Assembly (NCBI RefSeq): GCF_055900595.2
Contig: NZ_CM148325.1
Length of the DNA stretch: 64,000 bases
Direction: 5' to 3' (one strand)
Of the stretch, positions 6,351 to 49,726 are shown piece after piece. Under the pieces are notes generated by a model. It was not told the DNA's origin, searched no databases, and was given only the letters and a program-made list of their open reading frames with translations. A program made the position numbers and the translations under genes. Every line of letters starts with the position of its first letter. Within the stretch, counting starts at the first letter, position 1.

Positions 6351-6372
6351 TCTTCACTCTGCGCTAAGCAAA

Positions 6373-6500
<128 letters not shown>

Positions 6501-6507
6501 CGAAATA

Positions 6508-6972
6508 ATGAATTATCATCAGTACTATCCTGTCGACATCGTCAACGGCCCCGGCACTCGCTGCACCCTGTTTGTCTCCGGGTGTGTTCATGAATGCCCC
6601 GGTTGCTATAACAAAAGCACCTGGCGGGTAAATTCCGGTCAGCCATTTACCAAAGCAATGGAAGACCAGATCATTAACGATCTGAATGACACCCGCATCA
6701 AACGCCAGGGTATTTCCCTCTCCGGCGGCGATCCGCTGCATCCGCAAAACGTGCCGGATATTCTGAAACTGGTACAACGCATCCGCGCCGAATGTCCGGG
6801 TAAAGACATCTGGGTGTGGACAGGCTATAAACTCGACGAACTCAACGCTGCGCAAATGCAGGTTGTTGATTTGATTAACGTGCTGGTCGACGGCAAATTT
6901 ATGCAGGATCTAAAAGACCCTTCCCTGATCTGGCGCGGCAGCAGCAATCAGGTGGTGCATCATTTGCGTTAG
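6508..6972 (+). CDS. nrdG: Anaerobic ribonucleotide reductase activating protein (radical SAM)
   Basis: ORF-track start 6463 trimmed to MNYHQYYPVDIVNGPGTRC for the recalled 154 aa; radical-SAM cysteine cluster; follows nrdD. Confidence 0.85.
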   Translation: MNYHQYYPVDIVNGPGTRCTLFVSGCVHECPGCYNKSTWRVNSGQPFTKAMEDQIINDLNDTRIKRQGISLSGGDPLHPQNVPDILKLVQRIRAECPGKDIWVWTGYKLDELNAAQMQVVDLINVLVDGKFMQDLKDPSLIWRGSSNQVVHHLR

Positions 6973-7212
6973 TCACTCATCCAGTCGGACCTTAATGGCC
7001 TCCTGTGGGTTGGCCAGTCGTTCCCTGACAGTGCGTAACAAGGCTTCTTCACTATCACTGACAGTGAGCGTTTTTACCGGCATTCGTCCATTTTCCGCAA
7101 CGTACTGAAACAGCAGCCGCACTGCTTCAGTAGGCGTGATGTTTAATTTTTCCAGCACCGCATAAGCCTCATTTTTCAGTTTGTCATCCAGGCGGACGTT
7201 AAGTGTGGCCAT
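6973..7212 (-). CDS. RelB/DinJ-family antitoxin-like protein (ribbon-helix-helix), apparently solitary
   Basis: 79-aa ORF MATLNVRLDDKLKNEAYAVLEKLNITPTEAVRLLFQYVAENGRMP... that closely resembles E. coli RelB as I recall it; GGAGG Shine-Dalgarno 5 nt upstream; no toxin-sized ORF adjacent. Confidence 0.6.
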   Translation of the reverse strand: MATLNVRLDDKLKNEAYAVLEKLNITPTEAVRLLFQYVAENGRMPVKTLTVSDSEEALLRTVRERLANPQEAIKVRLDE

Positions 7213-7235
7213 TATGCCTCCGGTAATTATGAAAA

Positions 7236-7270
7236 GTGTAATGCATTATAGCATTACATATGCATTACAT
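7236..7270 (-). promoter_or_regulatory. Candidate promoter and operator of the RelB-like gene
   Basis: Inverted repeat GTAATGC/GCATTAC with the GCATTA(C/T)A motif three times; minus-strand TATAAT at 7245-7250 embedded in the palindrome, about 33 bp upstream of the start codon. Confidence 0.4.
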
Positions 7271-7402
7271 TCATTTCTGGAAAACGCCTCGCAAAAATGA
7301 GGACGACACGCAGGAATATGCCGTAGTGAAGATAGATATTGCGGTGATTTTACGAAGGGGAAGAAAGCGTTGGGCGGTAACGTTTCACCGCCCAATAAGG
7401 AA

Positions 7403-7792
<390 letters not shown>

Positions 7793-7841: not shown

Positions 7842-9194
7842 TTACTGCCCGGCGATTTTCATCTCCGGCAACAGCACAGAACCACACTGTATATTGCTGC
7901 GTGTTTCAATATCGTTACCGACGGTGACAATATTGCGCCACATATCTTTTAAATTACCTGCGATGGTGATTTCGCTAACCGGATACTGAATTTCGCCATT
8001 CTCTACCCAGAAGCCCGCAGCACCACGGGAATAATCACCGGTAATGGCACTCACGCCCTGGCCCATCAGTTCCGTCACCACCAGCCCGGTGCCCATCTCT
8101 TTGAGCATTTGTTCGAAGCTTAGCCCTTGTCCGGCAATCCGCCAGTTGTGAATACCGCCCGCATGTCCGGTGCTTTTCAGCCCCAGTTTCCGCGCCGAAT
8201 AGCTGGTCAGCAGCCACTGAGTCAGGATACCATCTTTGACGATATCGCGGCGCTCGGTGCGCACACCTTCGCTGTCGAATGGTGTAGATGCCAGTCCTTT
8301 CAGCAGATGCGGATGCTCTTCAATGGTCAGCCAATCCGGCAGAATTTGTTTACCCAGCGAATCCAGCAGGAAGGTGGATTTACGGTAAACCGATCCACCC
8401 GCTATCGCCCCCACCAAATGACCAAACAACCCTGTTGCCACTTCATTGGCAAAAATTACCGGCGCTTTCATGGTGGAAAGTTTACGCGGTGACAGGCGCG
8501 ATAAAGTACGGCGAGCACAGTCGGCCCCGACCCACTCTGGCGTCTGCAGATCGCTCATCGCGCGACCAATGGTGTAGGCGTAATCACGCTCCATATCGCC
8601 ATTTTCTTCGGCAATTACGCAGCTTGAGAGTGAATGACGCGTTGAGCAATAACCCTGCAACATGCCGTGGCTGTTGCCAAAAACTTTTACGCCGTAGTGG
8701 CTGTTAAAACTGCCGCCTTCGGTATTGGTGATGCGTTTATCCGCCTGTAATGCTGCCTGTTCTGCGCGAGCCGCCAGTTCAATAGCTTCATCCGGGGAAA
8801 CTTCCGCAGGGTGAAACAAGTCGAGATCCGGCGCGTCAAAGGCCAGCAGCTCTTTGTCTGCCACGCCGGCACAGGGATCTGGCGAGGTATAACGGGCAAT
8901 ATCCAGCGCTGCCTGTACGGTGCGGGCAATGGCCTGCGGGCTTAAATCGGTAGACGATGCGCTACCTTTACGGTTCTGGTGATAAACAGTGATCCCCAGC
9001 GCGCCATCGCTATTGAATTCAACATTCTCCACTTCACCATAACGCGTGCTTACGCTAATGCCGGTGGTCTTGCTGACGGCAACTTCCGCACCGTCCGATT
9101 TGCCTGAGGCCAACTCCAGCGCAGTGGAAACTGCTTCTTCCAGAATCTTGCGCTGCGCTTCAACTTGAGAGATTACTTTCATTGCAAGTGCCAT
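7842..9194 (-). CDS. pmbA: Metalloprotease PmbA/TldE
   Basis: 450-aa ORF starting [22 protein letters not shown]; TldD/PmbA family; conserved neighbourhood. Confidence 0.9.
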
Positions 9195-9859: not shown

Positions 9860-9975
9860 ATGGTTTGCCGGATGCGGTGCACCTGTAGGCCTGATAAGAC
9901 GCATCAAGCGTCGCATCAGGCACTATGCTCAAATGCCGGATGCGGCGTGAACGCCTTATCCGGCCTACACACACT
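9860..9975. repeat. REP/BIME cluster between yjgA and mpl
   Basis: Two or more GCCGGATGCGG...TTATCCGGCCTACA units in inverted orientation; boundaries approximate. Confidence 0.7.
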
Positions 9976-16104: not shown

Positions 16105-16225
16105 CGTTGTAAAGCGTGCGCCAGATAAGACACAACAGCGTCGCATCAGGCATCTCGCACAACCGCCGGATGCGGCGTGAATGCCTTATCCGGCGGCCCA
16201 CAAGTCGGCATCAGGCATTGATGCC
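16105..16225. repeat. REP/BIME cluster between ytfQ and ytfR
   Basis: GCCGGATGCGGCGTGAATGCCTTATCCGGC units plus inverted partner; boundaries approximate. Confidence 0.65.
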
Positions 16226-25250: not shown

Positions 25251-25421
25251 GCATTTATCAGTCGTCTGAATTTTAACCCTCTGGCGACTTTACAGTACCT
25301 TACGCTATACTAGCCACTGAAAATGCCGGTTCACTTTCTTCGAATCGGCTTTCAATGTGTATTTCACACAAATTAATCAACTTCCCCTTCCGAGGATCTG
25401 GCCTGAAAGGTCGGATAAGAT

Positions 25422-29891: not shown

Positions 29892-30080
29892 TTCTCCACC
29901 TCGTCTCTGTGAGCGGTGTTAACTTGTTGTTTTACTTATACCCTATCGTTAAAGAATGCGCCAACTGTGATAGTGTCATCATTTTCAAAGCGTTAAATTG
30001 TGGCATTCTTCACTGTTCTAAAAGTAAGAGGTTTATTCTCCCTTTTCTTTCGAATTCCCGATGATAAAAGGATGTCCCTG

Positions 30081-49003: not shown

Positions 49004-49417
<414 letters not shown>

Positions 49418-49726
49418 TTATTCAGCCTCCTGTCTGGGTCAGCCGAATCCCGGGGAGGCAAGGAACGTGTTAAAGGTCGGCTGAAAAATGACGCGTTATA
49501 GTACTGACATACCCCGCTAAACTCAAGGCCAGCCGACAAATAAATCTCATCTTTCACCAAATCGTACTAACACGCTGATTTGAAGTTCATCACACTTCAT
49601 CATGGTGTTTTTTTGAACAACTGCATCAGAAATGGTCACCATCCACTTCTTTATCATTGATTAAAATTAAATCAGAAGATCACCACAAGAGGAGAGCACA
49701 CAAAGTCAGCCGTCGAGGAGGTATCT

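Follow-up and report, generated by a model that had tools for sequence, protein, structure and literature searches.

The best-described relative of the gene considered here is relB of Escherichia coli K-12, which is part of the relBE operon of the Qin prophage and whose product is represented in PDB entries 4FXE and 2K29. In K-12 relBE the toxin RelE is a co-repressor (PMC2812701; PMC12301738), and the operator relO, lying across the −10 element, is built from the hexad [A/T]TGT[A/C]A (PMC2812701; PMC12301738). K-12 RelB lacking residues 70–79 keeps both the neutralisation of RelE and the repression of relO (PMC12301738). A second relative, the STM4449/STM4450 pair of Salmonella, has been catalogued as a relBE module (PMC8708949; also PMC3868539, a retracted survey). 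E. coli is reported to have an abundance of antitoxin genes that stand apart from any toxin gene, referred to as orphan or solo antitoxins (PMC10790755; see also PMC7192599).

Here we describe a relB gene located between nrdG and cybC in a 64,000-nucleotide stretch of E. coli chromosome (contig NZ_CM148325.1 of assembly GCF_055900595.2; we refer to the whole of this stretch as the window). Its product belongs to the same family as K-12 RelB and has the same length of 79 aa, with a ribbon-helix-helix N-terminus, a conserved Arg7 and a C-terminus that can be aligned over its whole length with the RelE-wrapping segment of K-12 RelB, and its putative operator, like that of K-12 relBE, overlaps the −10 element and has a TGTAA hexad core. 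Unlike K-12 relBE, the window gene has no relE after it, lies in the chromosomal backbone rather than in a prophage, and has an operator of three 8–9-bp repeats (two direct, with 11-bp spacing, and one inverted) where K-12 has four hexads arranged as two abutting 12-bp palindromes. The Salmonella enterica pair (LT2 tags STM4449/STM4450) occupies the orthologous site at the 3′ end of nrdG, which it directly adjoins; its RelB and RelE are 83.5% and 69% identical to those of the E. coli locus and the three TGTAATGC repeats of the operator are conserved exactly, but the toxin gene is present and the upstream neighbour is a PRD-domain gene, not cybC. Closest of all are intact relBE alleles at the nrdG–cybC site of other E. 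coli strains (RelB WP_000212715.1; RelE WP_001105433.1 and variants), which share 99% DNA identity with the window over relB, its promoter and the flanks, and relative to which the window lacks 283 bp comprising relE, and RelB lacks Leu80. The window gene resembles the surveyed orphan antitoxins of E. coli and Klebsiella in being an antitoxin homologue with no adjacent toxin; it differs from them in that the event that generated it can be resolved to the base pair and is recurrent. Our search of the literature for this locus or its deletion mechanism found catalogue mentions only and no paper describing either.

Results

A predicted RelB antitoxin gene abuts nrdG

The features of the locus are as follows, with coordinates given as positions in the window and the basis of each assignment in brackets.

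6508–6972, plus strand: nrdG, a context gene convergent with relB (ORF, annotation)
6973–6976, minus strand: relE-derived segment, a TGA stop codon and one further base (sequence reading)
6973–7212, minus strand: orphan relB coding sequence, 79 aa (ORF; NCBIfam, Pfam, K-12 RelB and PDB matches)
6977–6984, no strand assigned: deletion junction as read from the alignments, the single remaining 8-bp repeat TCATCCAG, which is CTGGATGA on the coding strand (alignments, junction table)
7217–7221, minus strand: Shine-Dalgarno sequence GGAGG, 4 nt before the relB ATG (sequence reading)
7237–7270, minus strand: putative RelB operator (repeats, chance estimate, conservation in Salmonella, invariance in toxin-bearing E. 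coli)
7245–7253, minus strand: putative extended −10 element TGcTATAAT, in the middle of the operator palindrome (sequence reading)
7370–7395, minus strand: terminator-like hairpin TTGGGCGGT...ACCGCCCAA, downstream of cybC (pattern scan, inverted repeats)
7403–7789, minus strand: cybC, encoding cytochrome b562, a context gene and the upstream neighbour on the relB strand (ORF, annotation)

An earlier reading of the window, made from its letters and open reading frames alone, had singled out a 79-aa minus-strand ORF as RelB-like. The ORF occupies 6973–7212 and has an ATG start, and homology searches bear the earlier assignment out. The NCBIfam RelB/DinJ equivalog NF008412 matches the 79-aa protein at E=1e-37 (128 bits; cutoff 96), TIGR02384 matches it with 72 bits (cutoff 45.65), Pfam RelB (PF04221) spans residues 1–76 (E=8e-16), and K-12 RelB is 47% identical to it over the full length. 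RelB of PDB 4FXE is matched at E=4e-20, with the C-terminal segment of the window protein aligning with K-12 RelB through residue 78 of that structure, and the RelB chain of 2K29 is matched as well. The N-terminal ribbon-helix-helix domain fits the RelB/DinJ family profiles, and RefSeq already annotates the protein (WP_000212714.1) as a RelB/DinJ family antitoxin. By homology, the ORF at 6973–7212 is thus identified as a genuine RelB/DinJ-family antitoxin gene. Its stop codon (6973–6975, TCA on the plus strand) follows the nrdG stop TAG (6970–6972) with zero bases between the two, just as had been read from the letters, and the distance to cybC, earlier put at about 190 bp, comes out the same, with the cybC stop 190 bp upstream of relB.

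Upstream of relB, the hexamer TATAAT at 7250–7245 on the minus strand lies between two inverted arms and is preceded by TGc. No good −35 element is present, and a strict two-hexamer scan for sigma-70 promoters gave zero matches, a result that fits an extended −10 promoter lacking a −35, so that TGcTATAAT is the one element from which the promoter is read; transcription of relB is predicted to start near 7238, within the inverted repeat. The hairpin at 7370–7395 parts cybC transcription from the relB promoter. We note that cybC is intact here (128 aa) and is annotated as a pseudogene (b4236) in K-12 MG1655.

Between nrdG and relB a pattern scan found no terminator, and the fold of the sequence is no better than that of shuffled sequence (z=−0.48); the nrdDG and relB transcripts may overlap as antisense. 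At the corresponding K-12 site (L006, 2857–2900), nrdG and the cybC pseudogene lie 44 bp apart, and the spacer contains a GC-rich hairpin, TTCCCTGTT...AACAGGGAA. This hairpin is absent from strains with relB or relBE, which have no terminator-like structure between the convergent nrdG and relB(E). On the other side of nrdG, the nrdD–nrdG spacer is filled at 6355–6480 of the window by REP/BIME-like palindromic units (GCCGGATGCGGCG..., CGCATCAGGC), and this gap varies by strain, from about 84 to 543 bp among the loci fetched. A scan of the whole window at Rfam gathering thresholds found nothing near 6900–7400, and no tRNAs were found. Elsewhere in the window the gathering-level matches (9888–9965, 16119–16195, 25303–25360, 29958–30080 and 49397–49481) correspond to naRNA4/CssrE (two copies), STnc450, the ES239 sRNA and the RpsF leader, all of them expected on an E. 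coli chromosome.

Three repeats form a putative operator around the −10 element

The octamer TGTAATGC occurs at 7237–7244 on the plus strand and at 7251–7258 and 7262–7269 on the minus strand. Read along the gene strand, this amounts to two direct ATGTAATGC repeats (7270–7262 and 7259–7251) with 11-bp spacing and an inverted copy, GCATTACA (7244–7237), and the last two repeats form the palindrome TGTAATGC-TATAAT-GCATTACA; the inverted repeats of the region have arms of 8 nt and 10 nt. Only four copies of TGTAATGC are found in the 64-kb window, against 2.9 expected per whole window, and three of them fall within 33 bp at the operator, which is far beyond chance. The fourth copy, at 8746–8753 on the plus strand, lies inside pmbA, and as an isolated copy it matches the chance expectation.

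The putative operator contains ATGTAA twice on the gene strand and TGTAA once on the other, flanking and overlapping TATAAT; TGTAA is also the core of the hexad in K-12 relO. In Salmonella (SARB27, L018, 2440–2500, upstream of STM4449), where the three repeats are preserved to the base, the spacers between them differ and the −10 reads TAAACT in place of TATAAT. Exact repeats set among varying spacers constitute what appears to be a phylogenetic footprint of function. The sequence-only reading had described a palindrome over TATAAT with the look of an autoregulated promoter; an element of this kind, still putative as an operator, gains from the number of the repeats, from their conservation in Salmonella and from their relO-like core.

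The toxin gene is absent from the window

The earlier reading had also remarked that no ORF of RelE/ParE size stands on either side of relB. The six-frame ORF listing contains none flanking relB, and tblastn searches of the whole window with RelE of the intact locus and with K-12 RelE gave a best E of 0.12 and no toxin remnant, which together rule out a hidden toxin in the window. A type II toxin-antitoxin locus of the relBE kind has an adjacent, co-transcribed toxin gene; here there is none, and alignment with intact alleles shows relE as deleted. The antitoxin ORF is intact and stands without a gene for a cognate toxin on either side, as in orphan antitoxins, and the window locus is a remnant, not a toxin-antitoxin system.

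Intact relBE modules occupy the same site in other E. coli strains

A comparison across E. coli genomes had been proposed as a way of finding strains in which the pair is still intact at the nrdG–cybC site. Our sample of 5426 complete E. coli genomes contains about 390, roughly 8%, that carry relB (80 aa) and relE (96 aa) between nrdG and cybC. The relB segment is present in 451 of the 5426, every time on the chromosome; a 40-base probe over the nrdG/relB junction of the window finds the toxin-less junction in exactly 60, and chromosomal copies of relE at least 90% identical number about 394. K-12 and most other E. coli have neither relB nor relE at this site, in keeping with the earlier remark that such a gene is not known from K-12. 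In the intact alleles, by annotation, a 96-aa RelE gene lies between relB and nrdG, overlaps relB by 11 bp and has a stop codon that abuts nrdG (intact loci inspected: L001, L007, L008, L015 and L019). The RelE of this locus is 65% identical to K-12 RelE, in an alignment over the whole RelE length.

The orthologous Salmonella pair beside nrdG suggests that the relBE module at the nrdG 3′ end is probably old, in which case its absence from K-12-like strains would be a secondary loss. We also encountered two other states of decay. In UPEC132 (L009, 1493–2014) relE is frameshifted and relB intact, and in SCPM-O-B-7615 (L004, 1090–1540) relE is frameshifted and the 5′ part of relB is deleted together with the promoter. 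Both states lie on strongly divergent nrdG/cybC haplotypes, with 30–39 differences in the 466 bp of nrdG.

A deletion between 8-bp repeats appears to have removed relE

Alignment of the window with intact alleles shows one gap, of 283 bp. At the end of relB and again at the end of relE, intact alleles have CTGGATGA on the coding strand, both times in one codon phase, and the two copies are 283 bp apart. Intact relB ends ...CGA CTG GAT GAA CTA TGA (RLDEL*) and intact relE ends ...CGG CTG GAT GAG TGA (RLDE*), and relB of the window ends ...CGA CTG GAT GAG TGA (RLDE*), with the stop codon of relE. The junction repeat extends to 11 bp (TCATCCAGyCG) if the variable base at 6985 is allowed for. Loss of the final Leu80 is the one difference between the window protein and the 80-aa RelB that the intact alleles encode. 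We note that the old relE start codon, which lies in the junction repeat, opens a 3-codon ORF (ATG AGT GAC TAA, 6981 to 6970, minus strand) that reads into the nrdG stop codon.

These alignments indicate that the window form arose by a 283-bp deletion between the 8-bp repeats that removed relE exactly. The deletion, by replication slippage or short-homology recombination between the CTGGATGA copies, joined relB codon 79 to the relE stop codon and left the promoter, the putative operator, the ribosome-binding site and 79 of the 80 RelB residues untouched. Loss of Leu80 should be harmless, because K-12 RelB still works when residues 70–79 are missing (PMC12301738). Salmonella relE ends ...KRL* and has no 3′ copy of CTGGATGA, and the hot spot for the deletion is therefore E. 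coli-specific. We considered the converse event, insertion of relE with an 8-bp target duplication, and rejected it: the Salmonella pair lacks the repeat, and the toxin-less alleles nest within the diversity of the intact haplotypes. An orphan antitoxin or the remnant of a decayed module were two of the possibilities raised from the letters alone, and both receive support from the intact pair at the same site and the precise 283-bp loss of relE.

Operator and RelB variants are found in toxin-less lineages

Of 450 genomes, 422 have one and the same 44-bp operator segment, and the remaining 28 carry variants with a single mismatch. No variant occurs among the toxin-bearing E. coli genomes, and the 28 variants match toxin-less genomes by count. 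In 25 O145-type genomes GCATTACA is changed to ACATTACA, and these are the same accessions as those with the O145-type junction; in WP8-S18 and AST262 the −10 TATAAT is changed to TAGAAT; and in EC42405 TGTAAT is changed to TGTACT, making three independent point mutations of the operator segment among toxin-less lineages.

RelB follows a similar course. The five intact haplotypes encode one invariant protein (WP_000212715.1), and three of the six toxin-less haplotypes encode RelB with D78G, with E55D and D78N, or with A72T; each of these substitutions falls in the half of the protein that binds the toxin. None of the six toxin-less haplotypes has a change in the N-terminal DNA-binding domain. 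The changes in the operator and in the C-terminal part of RelB are suggestive of relaxed constraint after toxin loss, a pattern that is not statistically firm with a sample as small as six toxin-less haplotypes. The relB reading frame is open in 25 of 25 genomes of the O145:H28 clade, which leaves room for selection for the retention of relB. The window allele itself shows no decay, its operator, promoter and protein all being ancestral, and its deletion is therefore probably recent.

RelE, on the other hand, varies among intact alleles while its partner RelB does not (relative to 50579417, MB50 has E31G, R45L, Q58L, L62R and A90V), and some of the toxins counted as intact may already be attenuated.

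The orphan RelB is best explained as a redundant relic

We consider it very probable that the window gene is a real relB gene, the surviving half of an old relBE operon whose relE was lost by deletion, and that it is at present most likely a functionally redundant relic. The relic is most likely recent and undecayed in the window lineage, with decay beginning in other toxin-less lineages. By analogy with K-12 RelB, transcription would proceed from the extended −10 promoter, and RelB dimers, bound to the TGTAATGC repeats on both sides of the −10 element, would repress transcription of their own gene. This repression is expected to be weaker than in intact strains, since RelE is a co-repressor, and the RelB that is made would have no cognate toxin to neutralise. 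We regard expression of the window allele under its own repression as probable.

An unlikely alternative to a redundant relic is that selection keeps the orphan RelB as a trans-acting immunity, or anti-addiction, factor directed against toxins that are plasmid-borne, prophage-borne, recombined or paralogous (such as RelE of Qin), a role that reviews have proposed for orphan antitoxins (PMC10790755). An active factor of this kind would accord with the intact ORF, promoter and operator of the window allele and with the retention of the gene in 60 genomes, including the whole O145:H28 clade of 25, and related toxins circulate in E. coli, K-12 RelE and a common plasmid RelE sharing 65% and 55% identity, respectively, with the RelE that was lost. 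The mobile elements themselves speak against it. Apart from a mislabelled E. coli chromosome (98.7% identity), RelB matches on plasmids comprise two records at 60–80%, the rest being below 60% and, among the matches listed, at most 47%; in the phage collection the sole close match to RelB is a mislabelled contig of the Salmonella chromosome. A closely related pair on a mobile element, as anti-addiction would call for, was thus found neither among plasmids nor among phages, and the plasmid homologues of RelE are paired with Phd/YefM antitoxins that have no similarity to the window RelB, for which reasons we rejected plasmids and phages as the source of an anti-addiction partner. Cross-talk between non-cognate pairs is, moreover, reported to be rare (PMC12301738). 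Finally, toxin-less lineages carry substitutions in the toxin-binding C-terminal half of RelB and mutations in the operator and −10 element, the opposite of what retention for neutralisation predicts.

The in-phase CTGGATGA repeats might also be viewed as an E. coli-specific hot spot by which the relBE module disarms itself, turning time and again into a solo antitoxin that is still expressed, with this solo RelB kept for a while to guard against re-acquired or related RelE. We give this little credence. Were it true, toxin loss would be a selected, recurrent route to immunity, not neutral decay.

Co-option of the ribbon-helix-helix protein was the third possibility raised from the letters alone, and our analysis lends it no support. 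It is less probable still that the protein has become a regulator of other genes, for instance nrdDG or cybC, or that an unterminated relB transcript acts as antisense to nrdG. In favour, the DNA-binding N-terminus is unchanged in six of six toxin-less haplotypes, and relB and the convergent nrdG have no terminator between them, at a position where the K-12 arrangement has a hairpin. Against this, the only other TGTAATGC in the 64 kb is the single pmbA site, the number expected by chance; the convergent layout is the same in intact alleles, so that the deletion created nothing new; and a conserved regulatory circuit would be hard to reconcile with the operator mutations of toxin-less lineages.

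The deletion appears to have arisen at least three times

We compared about 1270 bp of flanking sequence, consisting of nrdG, the stretch from relB to cybC minus the repeat, and cybC. Over this length the window allele differs from the intact MB50 allele at 7 positions, as against 38 for toxin-less IAI39 and 45 for toxin-less WP8. Toxin-less IAI39 differs at 5 positions from intact GF4-3 (5–6 when IAI39 and O145:H28 are both compared with GF4-3), and the toxin-less groups differ from one another by 38–47. For toxin-less WP8 the nearest intact allele is 50579417, with 5 differences in the relB–cybC segment and 3 in cybC, the two being close in those segments only. The IAI39-type intergenic haplotype is found in 45 genomes, 44 of them toxin-less and one (GF4-3) intact. 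Group-specific SNPs at 6971, 6981, 6985 and 7003, 2–20 bp to either side, bracket the junction within about 30 bp.

Two toxin-less haplotypes each have an intact sister only 5–7 differences away, against the 38–47 that separate the groups. From these distances and from the SNPs that bracket the junction we conclude that the deletion appears to have arisen independently at least three times, on three flanking haplotypes. That it arose only once and was spread across lineages by homologous recombination is highly improbable. In favour of a single origin, recombination is frequent in E. coli, every junction has the same 8-bp repeat, and mosaics exist at the locus, OkiPb01695 having a junction of WP8 type together with an intergenic segment of IAI39 type. 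Against it, the group-specific SNPs beside the junction would require implausibly short imported tracts of less than about 30 bp, and the intact sisters of two toxin-less haplogroups are, over the approximately 1270 bp, far closer to them than these haplogroups are to each other. The third haplogroup (WP8) is near an intact allele in the relB–cybC and cybC segments only.

The junction of OkiPb01695 (NZ_AP042570.1) has three mismatches to the window, and its mosaic structure implies that recombination broke this small locus somewhere in a stretch of about 300 bp. Additional deletion events may have left their mark in the T/C variation at 6985, but the sign is ambiguous: the matching relE position varies among intact alleles, and a later synonymous mutation is also possible. 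We dropped it as a firm marker of crossover points, intact alleles being polymorphic there (MS57-2 and GF4-3 have T).

Discussion

The relB gene of the window is an ordinary orphan antitoxin of low novelty, unusual only in how well its origin resolves. The annotation suited to it is that of an antitoxin remnant of the nrdG–cybC relBE module, not of a functional toxin-antitoxin locus. As such it offers a clean natural example of the making of an orphan antitoxin, in which a short repeat appears to have removed the toxin in frame on at least three separate occasions.

The site also provides a natural comparison between 390 toxin-bearing and 60 toxin-less genomes, in which constraint on the operator and on the toxin-binding tail of RelB seems to ease after loss of the toxin. 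Such a comparison may be of use for estimating rates of toxin loss, and for asking whether the conservation of toxin-antitoxin operators exists only to control the toxin.
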